Part shown: positions 3,040 through 47,380 of the stretch, piece after piece
Layout: every line of letters starts with the position of its first letter
How positions within the stretch are numbered: position 1 is the first letter of the stretch
DNA from: Cetorhinus maximus
Lineage: Eukaryota
NCBI RefSeq assembly: GCF_964194155.1
Contig: NC_135902.1
Span: 52,328,001 to 52,392,000, forward strand
Length of the DNA: 64,000 bases
Reading direction: 5' to 3'
Position numbers and translations under genes: made by a program
The notes under the pieces: model-generated
What the model saw: the letters and a program-made list of their open reading frames with translations, nothing else
The model's database searches: none
What the model was told of the DNA's origin: nothing

Positions 3040-3500
3040 TAGTGTATTAAAACTCCCCAAGGTGTTTCATAGGAGCATATCAAACAACATTTATCACCAA
3101 ACTACATAAGGAGATATATATTAGGACAGGTGACCAAAGGTTTTGTCAAACAGGTAGGCATTAGGGAATATCTTAAAGGAAGAGAGAGAGGCTGAGACCT
3201 TACGGCCCAGGCAGCCGAAGGCACGGTTGCCAATCACGTGGAGCGATTAAAATCTGGGATGCTGAAGAGATCAAAATTGGAGAAACGCAGAGATTGCAGA
3301 GAATTGTGGGGCTGGAGGAGATTAAAGAGATTGGGAGGAGTGAGGCCATGGAGCGATTTGAAAACAAGGATCAGAATTTTGGTACTGAGGCACTGCCAGA
3401 CTTGGAAGCCAGTGTAGGTCAGTAAGAACAGGTGGTGATAGATGAACAGGACTTGTGCAAGTTAGGACATGGGCAGCAGAATTTTGGAGAGTTGACAGAG
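3040..3500 (-). mobile_element. L2-like LINE 3' fragment
   Basis: Similar to copies at ~31660-31875, 38460-38680 and 40960-41150. Confidence 0.6.
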
Positions 3501-3580
3501 AGTGGAAGGTAGATGGGTGACCGGCCAGGAGAGATGTTTCAAAGCATCACGTCTCATGGAGTGTGTTTGTATTTCCCTAG

Positions 3581-4038
3581 GCCGGCAGTGTGTGTTCCAG
3601 CAGCTGAGGCTCCCCGGCATGGTGAGACACCAGCGCTATCTCCGCTGCACTTGTTGTAAGGAAGGTCACTACACTATGGCGGATCTCCACCACCTCGACT
3701 GCTCACAGCCTGACCCAGAGGCCGAGGACATCGATGAGCGCTACACCCCCCAGCAGCGGGCGGCTGTCCTGCGGGTGCTGAACACAGCCTCCCGGGAGGA
3801 GCTGGCGGGAATCAAACTGCTGCGTGGCCGGAAGTCGGCCAACATTGTGGAGTATAGAGATGAACGTGGGCCATTCACACACCTGCGGTGTCTACTGGAG
3901 GTGCCGCTCTTCAAACACAAAACCATAACGAAAGTGTGTCAGTCAATCCTGAATCCCTGTGAGGAGCCTGGGAGGAGAGACAAGAAACTTCAAGGACTGA
4001 AGTTTATCAAACCTGATGTAGAACGAAAGCGACTTCTG
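3581..4038 (+). CDS. TEFM: TEFM coding exon 2 (HhH-like N-terminal domain)
   Basis: Acceptor tttccctag|, donor CTG|gtaagg. Peptide ...VLRVLNTASREELAGIKLLRGRKSANIVEYRDERGPF...FIKPDVERKRLL resembles vertebrate TEFM. Confidence 0.95.
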
Positions 4039-4069
4039 GTAAGGGCTGAAGTAAACGGCAAGGAGGCTG

Positions 4070-4230
4070 TACAAACAGTACACTGGATATACAAACAGTA
4101 CACTGGATATACAAACAGTACACTGGATATACAAACGGTGCACTGGATATACAAACGGTGCACTGGATATACAAATGGTGCACTGAATGTATGATTGGTA
4201 TACTGGATGTAGAATAGGTATACTGGATAG
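4070..4230 (+). repeat. 20-bp minisatellite (TACAAACAGTACACTGGATA) in TEFM intron 2
   Basis: About 6 well-conserved units followed by decayed ones. Confidence 0.9.
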
Positions 4231-4707
4231 ATAATTAGTATACCGAACATACTCAAAACCCTGAGCTCCTGACAGGCGAGAATTCTGTCGGTGAGCTGCA
4301 GATGACACTGGTGGACGTGCCTAATTACAACATGGCTTATTTAGACCATTTCCTTTAGAAATGTGAGGACAGCAGTTTATAATGCGGGACTGGTATTTGA
4401 TGTTGATACAGAATTGAAAAGCCCGACAACAGAAAGTAAGGTTCTGTTGAAGTGTGTTCGGATGTAAGATTTTGAATCTATAGATGTGATGCTTGGTTGA
4501 TGCTGTTGAAACTGTCTGTGGTGAGGTGGTTTGCTTTGTATGTGCATGCACTTTCCAGAGTGGAGTTCCTGAGCTGAATGTTGCAGGTTGGTGATGTCTG
4601 GCCTACCGCAGAAATAGCCTTTATGTAAGAATACTGTGCGCATGGAAATTGCACACTCTGACCGGGAAAGACGTCCTACCTAAATATATCCTCTCATTTA
4701 TCACAAG

Positions 4708-4857
4708 GCTGCAAAAAGCATTGTGTCAGTCGTGTTTGGAATCCGTAAGATTGCCTGGGCTCACGTGGACCGGAATCTGACTGTTCTAGACTGGAATCAG
4801 GAGACGAGTCATCGCTATATGAAAGGCACCTACCTGCCCTCCGTCTACCTTGAGGAG
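4708..4857 (+). CDS. TEFM: TEFM coding exon 3
   Basis: 150 nt, phase 0/0, cacaag|GCT...GAG|gtaagt. Encodes AAKSIVSVVFGIRKIAWAHVDRNLTVLDW...YLPSVYLEE. Confidence 0.95.
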
Positions 4858-5399
4858 GTAAGTCGCTCAGCAGGTTTTTCTCTCTCCGTTCTCCTGGGCT
4901 CCCACTGCACTCTGCCAGAGAAGTGGCCAGTCCAATTATCGCCAAAGGCTTGTATCCTTTCAAAGATTCAAAGTGGAGGGGTGAGCTAATTGAGGTGTTT
5001 GAGTCGATTCAAGGAATTGATAGAGAGAAACTGTTTCCTCTGAATTTGGGTTGTCAACTCTGTTTGGATGAATTCGTGGAGGTTTCATCACATGACCTCC
5101 TCCCCCAGCCTAAACATCGAGTGAAACAGCCTTATCCCCCATCACTAATATTTTTCTAATGAGTAAATATACCGTTCAAAAAGAATAAATAATGGGTTTT
5201 GTTCAGAGAAGATTAATCCTCAATTCCTGGAGACTCCAGATCAGTACAGGAGGGTTGGCAATGGGTTTCTGGAGTACGAGGAACCTAATCTTAGATTTAG
5301 ATTTAGAGTTATTAGATTTAGAGCCCTTATTCACAGGGCAGTGGAAATCTGGAACTTTCCTTCCTAAAAAGGGGTTGAGGCTGGAGGATTTTTGTTTAA

Positions 5400-5740
5400 T
5401 TCATTCATGAAATGCTGACGATACCAGAATTTGTTGCCCATCCCTAATTGCCCTTGTTCAGAGGGCATCTGAGAGTCAACCACATTGCTGTGGGCCTGGA
5501 GTCACATGTAGGCCAGACTGGGTAAGGACAACAGATTTCCTTCCCTAAAGGGCATTAGTGAATGCAGATGGGTTTTTATTACATTCGACAATGGTTTCAT
5601 GGTCGTTATTAGACTTTTAATTCCAGATTTTTATTGAATTCAAATTTCACCATCTGCCGTAGCGGGATTCAAACCCGGGTCTCCAGAGCATTACCCTGGG
5701 TCTCTGGATTACTAGTCCAACGACAATACCACTATGCCAT
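5400..5740 (-). mobile_element. tRNA-derived SINE (inserted in a CR1 3' fragment)
   Basis: A-box TGGCATAGTGG and B-box-like GGTTTGAATCCC on the - strand; homologous to 48432-48795. Confidence 0.85.
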
Positions 5741-6422
5741 CAATTGAAAATTTCAAAGCTGAGGTTGATAAGATTTTTGTTAAGGCTGGGGTATGAAGGA
5801 TTACAGAACCAAGGCAGGTAGATGGAGTTAAGATACAGATCAGCCATGATCTAATTGACGGAACAGGCTCGAGGCCATCTCCTGTTCCCAGGGAACTGTG
5901 ATTCAGCTTAAGTTAGAGCAGGAGAAGGGTACTCTGCCCTGTGGAGAGGTGCATGCCTCAGCTCACTGCCTGTCCCTCAGTGGCCTCTGGTATTAGCTGC
6001 TGCTCCTCTACAGATCACAGCGGTTTAGAAACAGACTATGTCACTATCCTGAATACTCCTGAGATCTGCAGAAGGTATATGTGCGGAGAGGGGGTCAAAC
6101 TGGCCAGTATCCAAGAGGGCACAGATTTCGAATAATTGGCAAAAGTTCCAGAGGTACACAAGGGGAATTTTATTTTTATGCAGCAAGTTCTGATCTGGAA
6201 TATGCTGCCTGAAAGGGCAGGAGAAGCAGATTCGGAATTGGATAAATACTTGAAAAAGAAACAGTTTGCAGGACCGTGGGGCAAGAGCAGGGAAATGGGG
6301 CTTTCAAAGACCTAGCACAGGAGCAATGGACTGAATGGCCTCCTGTGTGCTGTAAGATTCTAATGTCTTTCCAGATTCCTTGAAAATTCTAACATCCCTC
6401 TTTCTTTTCCATTTATTTGCAG

Positions 6423-6854
6423 ATCTCCACGGCCGTCTCTAAAATCCCCAAAGCAGATTTCTTCATCTTGGAGAAGCCCAGCATCTCGACTCAGAACACC
6501 AACCTGTTCCCTGTGACTCTGCACTTGCGCACAATTGAGGCCATGCTACACGGGCTGCTGGGGGGCAGCTTCCTGGAGGATGGTCAGCACAGGGTGCTGA
6601 GCGTGGTGCGTGCTGCAATTGGGAAGCACTTTGAATTAATGGTGGGGGAATCCCGGACCAGCGGGAGGGAACTGGTGCTGCAGCTCATGGTTGACTCGGT
6701 GATGCAGGAGCACCCACGGGTGCTGTTTCCCCGGGACACACTGGCCCGCTATAGGAGACTGTTTCAGAAGGGAAGTGCAGATCGGGGAGAGGAAATGTGC
6801 GATGCTTTGCTGCAGGCTGTTGCTTTTTACGAATTTCTGTTTAACAGGCCTTAA
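6423..6854 (+). CDS. TEFM: TEFM coding exon 4 (RuvC/RNase H-like pseudonuclease C-terminus)
   Basis: Long polypyrimidine tract then tttgcag|ATC. Encodes ISTAVSKIPKADFFILEK...EEMCDALLQAVAFYE, ending TAA. Spliced CDS is 1077 nt = 358 aa. Confidence 0.95.
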   Translation: MSTAVSKIPKADFFILEKPSISTQNTNLFPVTLHLRTIEAMLHGLLGGSFLEDGQHRVLSVVRAAIGKHFELMVGESRTSGRELVLQLMVDSVMQEHPRVLFPRDTLARYRRLFQKGSADRGEEMCDALLQAVAFYEFLFNRP

Positions 6855-7026: not shown

Positions 7027-7240
7027 TAAAATAAAAATAGGAAATGCTGGAAATAGTCAGCAGCTCAGGCAGCATGTATGGAGAGAGAAACAGAGTTAAA
7101 GTTTCAGGTTACTGACCTTTCATCAGAACCGACCCGAACGTTAATGCTGTTTCTCTCTCCACAGATGCTGGATGAGCAGTTGACTATTTCAGCAGTTTCC
7201 TGTTTTTAGTTCATATTTCCAGTATCCGCAGTATTTTGAT
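7027..7240. mobile_element. Palindromic Penelope-like-derived repeat just downstream of the TEFM stop
   Basis: Inverted arms GAAATGCTGGAAATAGTCAGCAG...CTGATGA core (- strand)...CCACAGATGCTG...GACTATTTCAGCAGTTTC. Confidence 0.75.
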
Positions 7241-10960: not shown

Positions 10961-11191
10961 ATAAAAACAAAAAACTACTGCGGATGCTGGAAATCCAAAA
11001 CAAAAACAGAATTATCTGGAAAAACTCAGCAGGTCTGGCAGCATCGGCAGAGAAGAAAAGAGTTGACGTTTCGAGTCCTCATGACCCAGTTCTGTTGAAG
11101 GGTCATGAGGACTCGAAACGTCAACTCTTTTCTTCTCCGCCGATGCTGCTAGACCTGCTGAGTTTTTCCAGGTAATTCTGTTTTTGTTTTT
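10961..11191. mobile_element. Palindromic Penelope-like-derived repeat (near-perfect ~90-bp arms)
   Basis: 10996-11087 is the reverse complement of 11100-11191 with ~3 mismatches. Confidence 0.85.
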
Positions 11192-13490
11192 GACTTTTAT
11201 TTATGACTTCTAGTTCTGGTCTCCCCTGCAAGCAGAAACATTTTCTCGTGTCTACCCTATCAAATCCTTCCAGAATTTTCAGAAGAAAAAAATCACCCTC
11301 CGCCATTTTTCTAGAGAAAAGGCCCAGCCTGATCAATCCTTTCTGATAGGGATTAGCTCAGTTTTGGCATCATCCTTGCAAATCTTATCTGAGCTTCTCC
11401 AGTGCCTCTATTTCCTCTTTATAATATGGAAACCAGACTGCAGTTTTCCTGTAGCACACTTATGTCTATCCACTTCACACTCGCTTGAATGCAGTGAGCA
11501 CTCTCTGAAGCTCCCTCACCTCCCCCAGCCAATTTTCAATATTAGACCTAATAAGGAACTTATACAGAGGAACCAATGTTCCTCAGTGCATCAGCCTGTG
11601 CGTTGAGTATAAAATTCACCAAACCAAAGTGGGAGGTGGAACATTTTCTGTTTCAGCCACCAAAACCAGGTCTATAATTAGCAATGAAGTTTAGTGCTGA
11701 ATTAGGGAGTTTTGTTCTCCAGGCCAAAGTTTGTTTACAACTGTCTTAAGATGTTTCAAACTCATTTGATATAGGATCTCCAAAGCCAATATATCAAAGA
11801 AATCTTCTTCACCCAGTTTGATCAGGGATTGAAACCAAAGACCAGAGTGTAATTCAGGGCACCACAATGTTTCCAACTATAGTGGCTTAAGCACAGAGAG
11901 GATAGAGTGATAAGGCCAACTTTCCACAACATGGCCATTTTCCTGCTGCCAGCACCCACAAGTGATCAGTTGTATTGAAATCACAACCTCTGGTTTGTAA
12001 GTCCACCAGGGCTACTGTGCCCATCACACATTCACACTGTCCCGGACAGGCTACTGGGTAGAGATGAGGAGTATCCTTGCTAATTGTCCCCTCTGCATAT
12101 CGCAGTGGCCCCATTTACTGTCTCACCCCAGACCAACTGCATTAACACAGACTGGTGACTGCATTCTATATTGTATGATGTACAAAATTAGATATCAATA
12201 GAGGATTCTACAAACACAAATTCATACCTGCCAAAAGATTGACAAGTCATTTTGTAATCTCTTTTTAAAAAAAAGAGATTAATGTAATTTTGCTCTCCTC
12301 CTTGTTGGATTAAGCAAGGCAACTTACAAATCCCTTGCAGCATTAAAAGGTCAGTAAGAACTGCGGAGTACGACACACAGTTCAGAGAAATGCTTGATTT
12401 AAATTGAGAAACTTTTGCTGTACATAACATAGGAGTTTGCAGTTATACAGCATTTCTCTGATTTATTTAATTCCATATCCAATGACAGAATGGGGTATAC
12501 AATCACACTATACAATACAGGGGCACTCCATCCTTTATAAGATCCACGTAATATAAAAATTGCAACATTAAAAAGCCTTAGTGGACAAGAGGATGGATCA
12601 TAGCCATTCATGATTTATGACAATATTCCCTCTGACCCTGGTTGAGGCTGGCAGACTCCAGTGAGGCATTTACAAACTGGGTCCTCTTCTGAGAGGAAGA
12701 CACTTGTCTAATCTCACTGCTGTCTGTAACTGGCCCTATTTATAACACTTGTGGAAGCTTTCTAAACCAAAGTTTGTAGCTTTGGGTTGAAAGGGTTTTT
12801 TGTGGGGGTGGGTGGGGGGTGTTTGGCACAGAAAGGGAGGGAAGGTTCAGAGGAGACAGAAGAAAACAAGGAGAAAAAAAGGTAAATCAAGACTGCTCGT
12901 TAAACAATATGTGTAATTAAATACTGTTGTAGCCTTGAGCTGGGAAGGGGTGGGCAGAGAGGGCAGGGATATACAAGAAAAAATACGAGTCAGCATTCCC
13001 ACTCCCAATCCCTATCCAGTGACCCCTGCTGGAATGTGTGCAGCGCTAATGTCGGATGAGCACAGGATTGGGTTTGGATGCAATGCCCCGCACAGTCAAA
13101 TAACACCCTCTTTCTTCTACTCGCACATGGATTCTTAGGCAAGATAGCAGAAGGTACCAGCAGGACAGGAGGGGAGGGTTTGTTATTTCTCCACAAGTGT
13201 TATAAATAGACTCCACGCACTCAAAATAAACTATTATGCATCGGATTTTTACATTCTTAGACAGCAGATACTATTATTCCCACTGTAATTAAATTAAGAA
13301 CCCAGCATTCTCCCACACAGTTTCACATCACTTTACTGTACAAAAAATGATTTCACAAAACACACACATATACACAGTGGACAGCAATTACCAAGTAAAA
13401 GACCAGGGGGAAAAATACCCCAGTAATACAGTCTGCCTTGAGTGTGTAATAATTCACTGTACAATAAGTACTGTCAACAAGTTGGGATCT

Positions 13491-15587: not shown

Positions 15588-17304
15588 CTGAAAGACAGAC
15601 AACACATGCATATTTCAGCATTTCCCAAGTTCAACCTCAGAAAAAAAATCCTTCAAAAGGTGCTACTGATCTCACATTTATTTTCTCCTGAATGTGCAGC
15701 AGCTTCTCTGATTTTAAGCCGCTTGTACTGACCACACATCTCTATCCTTCACCTTCCTGCAGCTTGATCTGGATATCAAAGTGACTGGATATCAATCTTA
15801 CACCAATCAATACTCACTACATATCAACTTGTTATTCTTTGGCAGAAAGATCAGCTTCAGTTAAAATACCCAGAGGATTGAAAGCAGAGTCTCAGTCAGG
15901 AAGGTTAGGCTTTCTTGTTGGGAGTTCCTGCGCACAGGTGTGAAATGGGACGGAATGGGCTCTTTCAGAGAGAGAGAAGGAAAGGATCTCCCTGAGTGTC
16001 TTTGTTTGACTACATAAGAAGTTATGGAAATATGACAATCGGCAGGAGGGCTAAGTGGCAACTGAGTTGAAATGTCAGCATGGCAACTTAACACTCACTC
16101 AACTCATGCAAGGAAGGGAGACAAGGGAGAGACAATTTGCAGCAAGTGATTATTAAACTTTTTGGTACTGCTCGCTTTAGTGACTTCACCAACATTTCAA
16201 AGCACTAACTAGACTTTGAACCAAATTGCTACCAAACCATTGACAGGAGCAGTTGAAAATATTTTCTAGTTACTGGAGCATATTGGAGATTTGGTGGGGT
16301 GGGTGGATGGATGTGAAGGTAGGAAACAGCGAGCTACAGGTTACATAAATTAAACGGAATTCCCCATACATTAATAATCACTGACAAAGTGACAAACTTA
16401 CTAGAGGAGTGTTGGTGCAAAGTTGAGATATTTGAAGCCTACCATTTATCCTGTACTTGTACAATACATATGCAGAATAATAACCCAAGCAGGTCAGTAA
16501 AGTGCATTTATATATTTTATCAAAAGGTTACGGTCAATCTGAACGCTGGAAGGTCGTACAGGAAATAAACAGGATGAATAACTAGTTAACTAACAGCAAC
16601 AAAAACAGGTCAAGGGAGGCATTGGCCCTTTGTCTAATGCTCTGGTATCTTTTACATCTTTTACATCCACCACAATCAATGGGAGAGACAGATCTTTGAT
16701 TTAAGATCACATCTGAAAGACAGTTTCAGGCAATTCACCACGCTACAGGAATGATCCATTCAAGGTCTAGTATGAAACTTAAATCTACATCTTTTGACTC
16801 AATCAAGTTGACAATGGATAGATTAAGGGAAAAAGAGCCCCCAAGATAATAATTTTACCTATCAAAGGATGTGTGAGGAAACACAGCGAAATTAATTAGA
16901 TTAAAAATTAAGGAGATTTCAGAGCCTGGACGCAAGGCTAAAACAGTGTGGAATCTCTCACAACATCTCTCGTCGTATAAAGAAACACATTGTGATGTTT
17001 GTATGAAATGTTTGACCCATTCTGCTCTGTTGCAGCTGAAAGAGGAAGTAATCCCAAAATAGCACTATCTCAAGTCTCATCTGGGACCGTGAAGGCATGG
17101 TTGGTTACACCTCAAAGATCACCCTTCTAAGAATGTGGATGCTTGTTCATTCTACACTCTTTCCAGGACCTGCACTAACTGAACTGTAAACAGTACACTA
17201 CAGAATGTCACTTTGGCTCAGCAGTGACATACACATTTTTTAAACAGGGAGATGAGGGTCTGAGGTTCACTTGGGCATATAATCCAGACTGGTAGCCAGT
17301 GCCG

Positions 17305-18396
17305 AAGCGGCAGTGCAGAGGGAGCGCCGCGCTGCTAGAGCGGCAGTGCAGAGGGAGCACCGCGCTACTAGAGCAGCAGTGCAGAGGGAGCGCCGCGCTA
17401 CTAGAGCGGCAGTGCAGAGGGAGCACCTCGCTGCTAGAGCGGCAGTGCAGAGAGAGCGCCGCGCTACTAGAGCGGCAGTGCAGAGAGAGCACCTCGCTGC
17501 TAGAGCGGCAGTGCAGAGGGAACACCGCGCTACTAGAGCGGCAGTGCAGAGGGAGCGCCGCGCTACTAGAGCGGCAGTGCAGAGGGAGCGCCGCGCTGCT
17601 AGAGCGGCAGTGCAGAGGGAACACCGCGCTACTAGAGCGGCAGTGCAGAGGGAGCGCCGCGCTACTAGAGCGGCAGTGCAGAGGGAGCGCCGCGCTGCTA
17701 GAGCGGCAGTGCAGAGGGAGCGCCGCGCTACTAGAGCGGCAGTGCAGAGGGAACACCGCGCTACTAGAGCGGCAGTGCAGAGGGAGCGCCGCGCTACTAG
17801 AGCGGCAGTGCAGAGGGAGCGCCGCGCTGCTAGAGCGGCAGTGCAGAGGGAGCACCGCGCTACTAGAGCGGCAGTGCAGAGGGAGCACCGCGCTACTAGA
17901 GCGGCAGTGCAGAGGGAGCGCCGCGCTACTAGAGCGGCAGTGCAGAGGGAGCGCCGCGCTACTAGAGCGGCAGTGCAGAGGGAGCGCCGCGCTACTAGAG
18001 CGGCAGTGCAGAGAGAGCGCCGCGCTACTAGAGCGGCAGTGCAGAGGGAGCGCCGCGCTACTAGAGCGGCAGTGCAGAGAGAGCGCCGCACTACTAGAGC
18101 GGCAGTGCAGAGGGAGCGCCGCGCTACTAGAGCGGCAGTGCAGAGGGAGCGCCGCGCTACTAGAGCGGCAGTGCAGAGGGAGCACCGCGCTACTAGAGCG
18201 GCAGTGCAGAGGGAGCACCGCGCTACTAGAGCGGCAGTGCAGAGGGAGCACCGCGCTGCTAGAGCGGCAGTGCAGAGGGAGCGCCGCGCTACTAGAGCGG
18301 CAGTGCAGAGAGAGCACCGCGCTGCTAGAGCGGCAGTGCAGCGGGAGCACCGCGCTGCTAGAGCGGCAGTGCAGAGGGAGCACCGCGCCACTAGAG
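17305..18396. repeat. 33-bp minisatellite, ~33 copies (CTAGAGCGGCAGTGCAGAGGGAGCGCCGCGCTA), in ATAD5 intron 21
   Basis: Visible directly; 11-aa periodicity in the four overlapping ORFs. Confidence 0.98.
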
Positions 18397-18640
18397 CTCC
18401 CTACAAGGGCAACTAGGGATGGACAATAAATGCTGGCCCAGCCACTGAAGCCCACATCCTGTGAATGAATAAAAAAAAATCTTCAGTTCTGGGGGCTGTG
18501 GTTCGAACCCTCTGCTATGGTACTATAACTCAGTTTCCCCTTTGTCTTTGTTTATGGTTAGCTCATACTAGTTTGGACATAGATACCCGTGGTCCCGCCC
18601 CATGGGAAATTCTATCCCACCACTGGCTTGTATTTTTTTT

Positions 18641-20195
18641 ACATTTTCAATACTGTTGAAGTTATCTGTACTGAACTCCATTTCAGGCATTTCAGCAAAG
18701 ATTTAAATATGCTAAAATCTTGCCTGCACTTCTAAATCTACAACTCATCTTTGCATCATCAGTGACTAACTAGACAGCCTAGATTGATACCGAGATCCCA
18801 GATTATTTACGTACATCAAGACTAGAAGAGGGTTCAAGCTCAGACTGCTAGGATACCGCGCTCCACAGTTACCCTACCTTACCAACACCCACTCTGTACT
18901 TTCTCTTTTGCCAGTTAGTCATCTACATAAATGTCCTATTCCGAAGTTAACACACTGCTCCGACTGACAATCTCAGTCTTTCACAGAGTCAGGCATTTAT
19001 AAAAATAAAACCATGGTGGCAGAAATTTTGCACAAACACTTATTCAAGAAGTTTCACAAATTTTGCAGAAGTTAGTGAGGCAAATAACACGCCAGAGAGA
19101 ACAAGATACAAGTGTCAACTGTTAAATCCCACCTTGTGATTCAAGTATGTTCTATTTGTGGCATCACAGATGCAGAGTTTGCAGTAAAATCTTTCTGACT
19201 TCCTCTTTTAAAAAAGAGGAAGGGAAGAACTTGCATTCACTGAACATTTTCAGTCTCAGGGCATCACACAGCCAACGAAGCGCTTTCGAAGTGTGTCACA
19301 CTTTTAAAGTACAGCAGTCACTTTGTGCAGTAAGCTCCCACTGACAAAAGTGTGATAAACAACCAGGCAATGTATTGCAGTGATGTTGACCGAGGGATAA
19401 ATAACAGCTCCAGGACACTGGGGAGAACTCACTTGCTCTTCTTTGAATAAAGCCATGGGAACTTTTAAGGCCACCTGAGTAGGTTTAACACCTCTTCTAA
19501 AAGACAGCACCGCTGATGGTGTAGCTCTCCTTCAGTACCACACTGGAATGTTGGCCCAGATTTTATCCTCAGACCCTGGAGTGGGGCTTCAGATTCTACT
19601 GACTCAGGGGGAGAGCACTACCCACTGAGCCAAATGGCTAGTGCAGATTCCTATACTTATAGAATCATTAAATCACTGAGATAAATACACATTTTTTTCT
19701 TCACATATAATAATGAGGGAGCCATACAATTTAAAAGCTGGGGAATCTCTACAAGCTCAACTGCACCACCAACAGGTGTTTACTGGCATTGCACCCACAC
19801 AGACAGTGCCGTACTTGGAAAAAAACAATCATTCTTGGGACGTGGGCACCCCTAAAGAGCCAGCTTTTTTTTCTTGTGCATCTCTTGGGCCTTCTTCTTG
19901 AAGCACTTACGTAGATGACTAACTGGCTAATGAGAGTACAGAGTGGGTGTTGGTAAGGGAGGGTAACTGTGGAGCGCGGTATCCTAGCAGTCTGAGCTTG
20001 AACCCTCTTCTAGTCTTGATGTACATAAATAATCTGGGATCTCGGTATCAATCTAGGCTGTCTAGTTAGTCACTGATGATGCAAAGATGTGTTGTAGATT
20101 TAGAAGCAGAGGCAAGGTTTTTAACAGCTTTAAATCTTTGCTGAAATGCATGAAATGAAGTTCAGTACAGATAACTTCAACAGTATTGAAAATGT
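18641..20195. repeat. Long inverted repeat: arms 18641-18926 and 19911-20195, spacer ~984 nt
   Basis: Manual reverse-complement alignment gives ~93% identity, with only 2 mismatches across ~18747-18900. Confidence 0.95.
19225..19635 (-). mobile_element. Ancient SINE (DeuSINE-like) inside the inverted-repeat spacer
   Basis: Homologous to 7400-7765. Confidence 0.75.
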
Positions 20196-21351
20196 GGGGA
20201 AGGTGCTCCCACTGTTAGGAGGCCCGAAGTTTGACACAGCGACGATGATGGAACTGTCAGGGATGGTGTACAACCTGGAGGTGACGGTATCCCCACGGAC
20301 CTGCTGCCCTCCTCTTCCTAGATAGTGGAGGTAACAGATTTGGGAGGTGGCACTGAAAAACCCTTGGTGAGTTTCTGCACTGTATTCTGTGGATAGTGGA
20401 TGCTGCAGTCACAGTGCACCAGTGGTGGAGGGAGTGAATGTTTAAGCCAGTGGGTGTGCTGCCGATTAACTGGGCTGCATAAGAGGATTGCTTAGTACGA
20501 CAAAACAACAGAAAATGTGGAAACACTCAGGAGGTTTGATCCATTTCCTCATGACTGGAAAATATTCGGTCAACAGCATTTACAAAAGAACAGAACAAGG
20601 GAAAGGGGAAAAGGAAAAAGAAATTGAATGTCTTGGGAAATACTTGGGTGAAGGACAGGAGACAGTTAAATGGCAGCAGGAAACAAAAGGAGGTATAGGT
20701 GAGAGAGATCAGAAATAAAAGACGTTTATAGGTGCGTGTGAGAATAGCTAAAAGAGCTGGGTACAAAGAGAAGCCTGAAAAACAGCAGGGGAGGTGGGCA
20801 GCAAAGATTCCTGCTGCCCGGATAACTAACAGAGCCTCATGTACAGGCTGCATCAGCTCGTGGCTCACTGTAGAGTAGGTTGTCCCCAATCCTAGATATT
20901 AATTCCAGAACAGGCAGAAATTTAAAGATTTAACACTGACCAAGTCTGTGAGACATAGCTCCCACATAGCTGGGCGGGTGTGTGGTCGTGCTATAAGCAC
21001 AAAGATGTTGTGCAGGGGACAAACAGGTCGTACACAAACAGTGATCCCTTTAAGAGGCACGCATACTTGGTAAGCTTAAAGGTTTGTGCAGTGCCACAAA
21101 CAGGCCAGACACAGCAAAGGGTTATTAGAGACAACGCTGGTGACAGGGTTGCTAAGTAAAAGTTATACAGTGATGCATTGCAACAGACTGAGAAACAAGT
21201 TCCAAATTTTCCCCTCCACAACTATATATAGGAGTGGGGGGAAGGGGAGGTATATATGCATAGGGAACTGTAATAACATAAAAAAATAGTATCCTGGTGC
21301 AATCCAGTGAATTAAATAATTTTAAAATGCAGTTATAAGCGTCAAACATAC

Positions 21352-24582: not shown

Positions 24583-24825
24583 TCAAAAACAGAAAATGCT
24601 GGGAAAACTCAGCAGGTCTAACAGCATCTGTGGAGAGGGAAAAAAAAAGAGTTAACGTTTCAAGTCCTTATGGCTTCTTCAGAGCTCTGAAGAAAAGTCA
24701 TAAAGACTCATAACGTTAACTCTGTGTTTCTTTCTCTCCACAGATGCTGTTAGGCCTGCTAAGTTTTTCCAGCATTTTCTGTTTTTGTTTCAGATTTCCA
24801 GCATCTGCAGTATTTTGCTTTTATC
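24583..24825. mobile_element. Palindromic Penelope-like-derived repeat
   Basis: Inverted arms centred on the perfect palindrome TTCTTCAGAGCTCTGAAGAA (24675-24694). Confidence 0.85.
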
Positions 24826-44947: not shown

Positions 44948-45092
44948 AAATAAAAGCAAAATACTGCGGACACTGGAACTGCAGATAGCAATTCTGAAGA
45001 AGAGTTATATTCAATGTGAAACATTGACTCTGTTTCTCCCTTCACAGATGCTGCCAGACCTGCTGAGTATTTCCAACACTTTGTTTTTATTA
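44948..45092. mobile_element. Internally deleted copy of the palindromic Penelope-like repeat
   Basis: AAAGCAAAATACTGCGGA...CTGAAGA...GAAAC...CACAGATGCTGCCAGACCTGCTGAG. Confidence 0.7.
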
Positions 45093-45850
45093 TTAATTAC
45101 ACATTGCTCAGTACAAGCCATCAGCATCAAATTTAGGGTTTTTCTCCAGATTCGCTATCGCCCTGAAATCCCAAACAGGATTGTGTTTCCAAATTGAAAG
45201 AAAGAACTAGGATTTATACAGCACCTTTCACAATCTCAGAATATCCCAAATGCTCACAACATTCTCACTATTGTAATGGCAGAAAACACTGCAGTCAATT
45301 TGGCAACACAGAAGCTGCTGAGGTTGTTGAAATTTCTTTAACTTTCATCTTTTTTCTTTAAGGGGAGGAAAGAACCTGTATTCACAGAGCACTTTCAATT
45401 CACAGAGCCTCATACAGCCAAAGTAGGAAACACAGCAACCAATTCGTACAAAGTAAGCTCCCAAAAAGACCAAGAGATAAATGATCAGATAATTTGTTTT
45501 TGGTGATGTTTGTTGAAGAATAAATATTTCCCAGAACATTAGGAGAACTCCCCTGCTCTTCTTCAAATAGTTCTGTGGGGTCTTTTACACCCACCCAAGA
45601 GTGCAGGTGGAATTTCGACCTTCTGACTCAAGAGATGAGTGTTATCACTGAACCAAAGCCGACACAAAGACAGGTATCCTGCACCCGGTCTCTGCTACTG
45701 TTGTTCTGAACCAGTGTACTCTGCTGGCTCATTCTCCAATCTTTCTCCATTCTAAACACACATTCTAAGCACGATCACAATTGAGCTCTGTAATAATTAA
45801 ACATCAATAGAACAAATTAAAATTAGAAAGGTACCACGAGAATCACTAAC

Positions 45851-46008: not shown

Positions 46009-46600
46009 CTAGACAACAAAAACAAAACCATGTTCATTTACAGCAACTAGCTAGAATTAATTTATGAAATGGCGATGTGATGTGATGTGCTAAAGGACCA
46101 CATTAGAGAGCAAGTGTAGTAGCAAAATGACCAGAAGTACTCGAAATAGATTATACTACGGCCATGTTATAGCACAAGTAAAACTTTCCATTTGTACAGT
46201 CCTATCGCCACATCAACCAGCTAAACATATTGATCCATGCCAGTGCACAACATGGAAACATCAACACAAGTTTATCTTTGTCCATTTGCCCAACAGGACA
46301 GTTTTTGGTATGCGTAGAAATGATGTGGAAGGAGATCTGATCCTGAAAACTACTAGGACATTTCCTGTGGTGATGGTCATGGCAAGCTGAAGGATGTTAC
46401 CACATTTCTATTTTGACCATTTTTCCCATTGTGAGGATTTATTTTTAAAATGTGTTACTAAGTTGAAGCTTGCTTTAATTGGGTTGAATTCTCAGAACAG
46501 CCCCATGCTGGGGTGTGAATCAGAAACGAGGTGAAGCATTTAGCTAAATGAGTTCAAGCAAAGGAAGCCCGTTAAGAGTCTTCTTCATCACAAAGTCATT

Positions 46601-46708
46601 CAGAGTTCTGAAGAGTCATACAGACTTGAAACGTTAACTCTTGTTTCTCTCTCCACAGATGCTGCCAGACCTGCTGAGTTTTTCTAACATTGTGTGTTTT
46701 TATTTCAC
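46601..46708 (+). mobile_element. Single arm of Penelope-like repeat with hammerhead-like core
   Basis: AGAGTT CTGAAGA GTC..GAC TT GAAACGTT AACTCT followed by the family tail. Confidence 0.75.
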
Positions 46709-47237
46709 ATTTGCCCCTCAAGCCTATTCCACTGCCGTTCATGGTTGGTTTGAACACATCACCTGCCTTGGCTCCATATGCTTTGTTACCCTAGGCTAGC
46801 AAAAAAAATCTATAATAATGCTGCAGCATCTTTATTCTGCTTTCTTAAGCAAATGCAAGTTATGTCCATTAACCTGAGGGATAGATCATAATTCATTTTT
46901 GGTATGTTTCACCATATTGTGAAATAAAGCAGCTTAGGGGATTCCAGCCAAACCTCATTTCTACTATTGTTAGCTCAACCTACCTTCAAGAGAGATTGAA
47001 GAGTTACACGTGAAAGACATAACTAGTGGATCCAGATCACAAGGGAATGCAATTGTTATATCTGATTTATGCTACGTTGCAACTTTTATTTATAAAGCAC
47101 TCAAAATATAGAAAGAAGCATCCCAAGAGGCTTCACAGTGGTGTAATGAGACAAAAATGATATTTAGTCAGTGCCTAAGAACGAAGTCAAAAACGTGGGA
47201 TTTAAAGGAGGGGAAACTCCAGTCTGTGGGGCAGAGG

Positions 47238-47380
47238 CAAAATGTTGGATATGCTGGAAATCTGTAATAAAACAGAAAATGCTGGGAACACACAACAGGT
47301 CAGGCAGCATCTGTGGAGAGAAAGAGTTAACATTTCAGGTTGATATCCCACATCAGACCCATTTTCTGTTTTTATTCTGG
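47238..47380. mobile_element. Decayed copy of the Penelope-like repeat
   Basis: ATGCTGGAAATCTG...CAGGTCAGGCAGCATCTGTGGAGAG...GTTAACATTTCAGGT. Confidence 0.7.

Follow-up and report, generated by a model that had tools for sequence, protein, structure and literature searches.

The window, that is, the whole stretch of 64,000 nucleotides of basking shark DNA that was analysed, carries on its minus strand a gene whose exon peptide is 100% identical to the NCBI ATAD5 protein labelled as basking shark. Protein mapping places 23 exons of it, including exon 21 (22250-21354) and exon 22 (15589-15428), and the intron between these two, intron 21 (minus strand, approximate bounds 15590..21351), contains the long inverted repeat described here, which is where a preceding sequence-only reading of the same DNA had located it. 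At 3496-6854 lie plus-strand exons of a second gene, tail to tail with ATAD5, which we take to be TEFM. Regarding other repeats, a GC-rich minisatellite with a 33-nt unit (17306-18397; 33 copies, 94% matches, several frames open throughout) is directly followed by the 3' tail of a LINE on the plus strand (18404-18485), and a multi-copy family of short-spacer hairpins, 79-95% complementary, is found at 10991-11196, 24584-24787 and 7029-7211, with further pieces near 1782-1931, 44999-45094, 46599-46712 and 47237-47343.

The inverted repeat

BLAST of the window against itself aligns the left arm (18641..18933, minus strand) with the right arm (20195-19904, i.e., 19904..20195 on the plus strand) over 294 columns, with 93.5% identity, 16 mismatches and 2 gaps (E 2e-123), and a distance of 970 nt between the two arms, which is the spacer (18934..19903). 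These values agree with the arms of ~285 bp and ~93% complementarity reported by the sequence-only reading, and the ~150-bp core with two mismatches that it described is recovered in the 154 nt from 18746 to 18899, where the arms differ at exactly 2 positions. Its further claim, that mismatches cluster towards the arm ends, holds when each mismatch is counted alone (p=0.004) and disappears once events within 10 nt of each other are merged (p=0.5). Two of the mismatches have a particular reading: that at 18727 (the window has C, and the same-species run X4 has T in its contigs of both arms) appears to be an allele or an assembly error, and that at 18931 sits in the junction and derives from the host element of the right arm.

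Origin of the two arms

The left arm is a decayed fragment of a LINE reverse transcriptase, with its sense on the minus strand, whose motifs suggest the CR1 clade. A profile of 24 LINE copies from the shark's own genome, retrieved via the translation of the arm, matches the left arm with 43.7 bits and the right arm with 40.8 bits, and 0 of 200 shuffles reach either value (the scores come from position-specific alignment with shuffles, those of nhmmer lying below significance), which bears out the earlier attribution of the arms to decayed reverse-transcriptase sequence. A tblastn search with the arm peptides against the window and the first loci returned nothing useful. The homology to CR1 runs on weakly and in order from the left arm into the spacer (19110-19265, 24.2 bits, reached by 6/200 shuffles), whereas no continuation is supported beside the right arm, either on the spacer side (20/200 shuffles) or outside (47/200); outward of the left arm, the best match is out of order (9/200 shuffles). 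In addition, the left arm outscores the right arm against this profile by 2-8 bits in 9/9 settings.

The surroundings of the right arm are of a different kind. The sequence outside it comes from the 3' tail of a LINE-like family, possibly HER1/HE1-like, that is present in high copy number; one copy of this tail runs on the minus strand over 20196..20478 (222.6 bits, profile 198-517) and resumes beyond the arm at 19829..19907 (28.0 bits at 19885-19829, profile 574-627). The host-tail profile matches both flanks in order, each with 0/200 shuffles, compared to 118/200 for a control flank. In uninterrupted copies of this host, the two flanks are joined with exactly 8 nt between them in 7/7 joins found with the setting of 20 nt and 5 mismatches, and every join found with the other three settings likewise has 8 nt. 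Since uninterrupted copies keep 8 nt between the flanks, 285 nt (19908-20192), matching 18644-18929 of the left arm, have replaced 8 host nucleotides. The inserted copy is flanked by donor-host microhomologies, of 3 nt at the outer junction (20193-20195) and of 3 out of 4 nt at the inner one (19904-19907); junction matches of 3-4 nt are weak evidence and often arise by chance. As the sequence-only reading had noted, there is no target-site duplication at the right arm, 8 host nucleotides having been lost instead.

As it interrupts an old LINE tail, with microhomology and without target-site duplication, the right arm is most likely a templated inverted insertion from the left arm, the left arm being the likely donor and the right arm the insert within another element. 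The layout is that of a templated insertion and not that of a transposon with target-site duplication. The local inverted duplication after decay that had been suggested before is hence supported, and its direction and junctions can now be read from the interruption of the host element. Twin priming was considered and rejected, as it inverts different parts of one element and does not duplicate one decayed part. Also rejected was the idea that a low-depth contig of one relative (C, see below), which joins 19907 to 20193 over 8 letters, represents the empty allele: paralogous host copies give an identical join, and 62 host copies spanning the relevant part of the profile are present in 1.26 Mb, so that the contig is most likely such a paralogous copy, although it may be an empty allele.

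Facing arms could also stem from a foldback or MITE-like element bounded by terminal inverted repeats, or from two young insertions that arose independently, and a multi-copy hairpin family does exist in the window. Against these origins, the left arm finds just 2 matches in its own genome, the two arms themselves, in a search that skips very common words; the same count disposes of the objection, raised with the initial description, that the arm could be a high-copy young repeat. Furthermore, one arm interrupts another element and the other arm does not, a target-site duplication is lacking, and stops and frameshifts are common to both arms. Such origins are therefore considered highly improbable.

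Age of the repeat

For the comparison with two other species, coded here as relatives B and C, contigs of 7 of 24 runs (X2, X4, X5, X6, X8, X14 and X15) were aligned, same-species runs included, and contig runs guessed to be of RNA origin and a raw capture run were left out. In B, 4 runs, each from a different study, contain the two arms together with their junctions, and so does the single run aligned for C (83% of it read). The flanks diverge from the window at 55/1514 sites in B and at 35/960 sites in C (3.6% each). Among the listed differences from the window (40 of 115), 28 are covered, and B agrees with C at 19 of these, for which reason the two are taken as sister groups. Since both arms are also found in two relatives, the repeat is evidently old and no assembly artefact, and its presence in B and C places it before their split from the basking shark. 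In favour of an artefact it can be said that the same-species runs may come from the assembly's own sample; the distinct left-arm and right-arm paths, with their junctions, in B and C, which come from other studies, leave that explanation a virtually negligible probability. Species-specificity and assembly error, both of which had been raised as possible objections in the sequence-only reading, thus fall away, whereas a third one, neutral divergence, stands in a sense that the divergence between species is roughly neutral.

Part of the differences between the arms is as old as this split. The cluster at 18708..18728 comprises 7 arm differences that predate it: the right arm of the window is identical there to that of B, and the right arm of C shares the 5 that lie outside its deletion. 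That right arm of C has three private substitutions and has lost ~11 nt, and the basking shark's own arms have gathered private changes about as fast as the flanks.

Probable exchange between the arms

The clearest trace of an exchange is an inner tract at 18900..18906, consisting of a 2-nt indel and a substitution. Left arms of the window and of C share the state that is 2 nt longer and a T (the left arm of C shows no gap against that of the window and no other letter at 18901 or 18906), while in all 4 of the 4 runs of B the right-arm state is found on both arms, that is, at both ends of the spacer, up to 18919. The pattern in B is non-reciprocal and involves two linked differences, and conversion is its likely cause; given that B and C are sister groups, it is B that departs from the other two species. 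An inversion of the spacer was rejected as its cause, since it would be reciprocal.

Further towards the middle, the core (18729..18899) holds no arm difference common to the species and is collapsed in the contigs of all three (A 18746-18875, B 18729-18919, C 18780-18900). Where 6.9 differences would be expected in the 191 nt of the core of B, 0-1 are seen (P 0.0015-0.011), with the core having been picked after seeing the data, and over the whole arm of B the deficit is smaller, with 4-5 post-split substitutions against about 10. Contig assembly, nevertheless, collapses near-identical arms and pops isolated differences, for example the known mismatch at 18810, which is missing from run X4; for that reason, collapsed cores are no proof of identity. 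Perfect identity of the arms of B over 275 nt, which the contigs had suggested, was indeed rejected, as run X6 separates two paths that differ by 10 substitutions in 18650-18758. With this in mind, the core of B has probably been homogenised by conversion. A further point in favour of conversion is 18858, where the two arms of the window have G and 5/5 collapsed contigs of B and C have A; this is a CpG site, and parallel decay or a popped bubble may account for it.

How much of this could be had without conversion? If a single templated insertion had taken place not long before the species diverged, and the arms had then decayed neutrally and independently, the clusters would be complex mutations or copying errors. 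In accordance with that, every arm difference predating the split falls in two clusters, the clustering is gone on merging, the deficit in the core of the window (2 differences in its 154 nt, where 5.6 would be expected) does not reach significance (P 0.08), and the lower score of the right arm against the CR1 profile weakly fits errors in the insert. Moreover, the outer parts of the arms (18643-18728) retain arm-specific states and group by orthology across species. What such a history does not easily provide is the left arm of B, whose agreement with the right arm at two linked differences, an indel and a substitution, would take either two exact reversions or the lineage sorting of ancient variants, and the A at 18858 in all five contigs also speaks against it. 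Decay without any conversion is thereby judged unlikely.

The expectation that, along their whole length, the two arms of one species should resemble each other more than their counterparts in other species agrees with the core of B (subject to bubble popping) and fails in 18643-18728. The ongoing arm-to-arm conversion invoked by the sequence-only reading survives in part: one tract in B, and probably its core, support conversion, but not its continuation in the window's own species, where private changes accumulate at about the rate of the flanks. Conversion between these arms looks occasional rather than continuous.

The predicted RNA stem

Folding of the transcribed strand predicts 282 arm-arm pairs, as any long inverted repeat folds. 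A stem of this length invites the idea of co-option, i.e., that selection maintains a long dsRNA in ATAD5 pre-mRNA as an editing substrate or for the control of splicing or stability; conversion would renew the core, selection would favour G-U-compatible changes, and conversion would thereby keep the RNA structure. The presence of the repeat in three species is compatible with this, as is the fact that transition mismatches give G-U pairs on the ATAD5 strand in 6/7 cases in the window and in 9/13 over all species. However, the count for all species stays short of significance (one-sided binomial, about 0.13), in B on its own it is 4/7, and a strand bias of mutation within transcribed regions could also raise the share of G-U. 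In addition, 8 of the 15 substitutions between the window arms are transversions, and there are indels, including the ~11 nt gone from the right arm of C.

The divergence of the arms is likewise ambivalent. Taken together, they differ from those of B at 13/554 sites (2.3%), against 3.6% in the flanks (P 0.06), which would suit conservation; the left arm, with 10/277 sites, is at the flank rate. The right arm of the window differs from that of B at 3/277 sites (P 0.009 against the flank rate, in a post hoc comparison), a value that neutrality does not predict, and the right arm of C is less conserved. No exon is found in the loop, as 115 ATAD5 proteins gave 0 matches in intron 21, and Rfam yields no family at the gathering score, its 2 weak matches lying outside the arms. 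(One ray ATAD5 isoform, P0011, carries an insert of 19 residues where exons 21 and 22 meet, without a match in intron 21 of the window.) Selection for a long dsRNA stem, as put forward in the sequence-only reading, is consequently not supported by the transversions, by the G-U counts or by the content of the loop, and co-option is deemed quite unlikely. The repeat is probably without function.

Frequency of similar pairs

A census of private pairs was carried out over 1.2 Mb in five regions outside the window, for pairs of at least 100 nt and at least 88% identity, at most 20 kb apart and lacking further copies elsewhere in the sampled DNA. It gave 2 inverted and 3 direct pairs, among 12 pairs listed besides that of ATAD5. 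One inverted pair (G000:C20:30172219-30174232; L152) has arms of 394 nt with 92.6% identity and a spacer of 1228 nt, 226 of the 394 nt being a high-copy repeat, and the other (G000:C12:40101298-40101797) has arms of 178 nt with 91.6% identity and a spacer of 146 nt; this second pair and the direct ones were judged private against the 1.26-Mb sample only. Mismatches are evenly spread in both inverted pairs, and a significantly clean core was found in none of the 5 control pairs (p 0.28-0.99).

Proposed history and comparison with known systems

Taking all this together, it appears quite probable that the right arm is a templated inverted insertion from the left arm ~1 kb away, likely followed by occasional arm-to-arm conversion, in a repeat that probably lacks a function. 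A broken or stalled 3' end would have primed on the nearby opposite strand, copied 285 nt of decayed CR1 sequence and rejoined; the copy now stands where the host element had 8 nt, with microhomology and without target-site duplication. The process may have been MMBIR-like or polymerase-theta-like, since the enzyme is not distinguishable from a sequence scar. This insertion predates the split from B and C; later, in the lineage of B, the left arm would have taken the right-arm state over 18900-18906, non-reciprocally, and the core was probably homogenised too. The long stem in the pre-mRNA would be a predicted by-product.

Counterparts are known for both the insertion and the conversion. MMBIR-type templated insertions (MMB-TI) are known germline variants with microhomology (PMC8421209), and short-range template switches have been described in apes, with inserts of median 12 and maximum 128 nt (PMC7954356). 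The ATAD5 repeat shares with them the inverted copy of nearby DNA, the microhomology and the return to the original locus, and it differs in its 285 nt, in a template 970 nt away and in having been fixed before a species split. Given that template-switch surveys seek templates within about 100 nt (PMC8421209), it resembles the process and lies, at 970 nt, outside the strict definition.

Concerning the later history, conversion-degeneration of duplicated blocks leaves copies that are most alike centrally and diverge towards their edges (PMC2588116), neighbouring Alus within about 10 kb are homogenised (as cited in PMC8230782), and template switching between the arms of inverted repeats occurs in yeast (PMC8604942). 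The likeness to our case consists in a pre-speciation duplicate, alike in its middle and diverged at its edges, with non-reciprocal transfer between close copies; the difference is that ours is non-coding, has 0.3-kb arms in a shark intron and offers one clearly visible tract. At the other extreme, the Y-chromosome palindrome P6 has arms of about 100 kb, over 99.9% alike, under constant conversion (PMC3723533). Both cases have arm-to-arm conversion (likely in ours) without detected inversion, and the between-species divergence of the arms, slightly below that of the spacer in P6, is matched here by a trend only; with 0.3 kb and 93.5%, the ATAD5 repeat is unlike P6 in that conversion is rare and old differences are retained. 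Regarding abundance, long inverted repeats reportedly number 6.6 million across the 424 genomes of LIRBase (PMC8728187). Among the top-ranked results of the literature search, no work on the repeat of ATAD5 intron 21 was found.

Templated inverted insertion and occasional conversion are, therefore, kinds of event already known, of which the ATAD5 case is a further example. As it stands, it is a clean and ordinary one, in which the donor, the insert, the site before insertion and a single subsequent conversion tract are all legible; greater importance would follow only from evidence of an effect of the stem on ATAD5 RNA. From 2 inverted pairs in 1.2 Mb, which is a small sample, thousands of such scars per genome would be expected, as a rough extrapolation only, and scars of this type in sharks could form a set for measuring the conversion rate of inverted arms of 0.2-0.4 kb that lie 1 kb apart.
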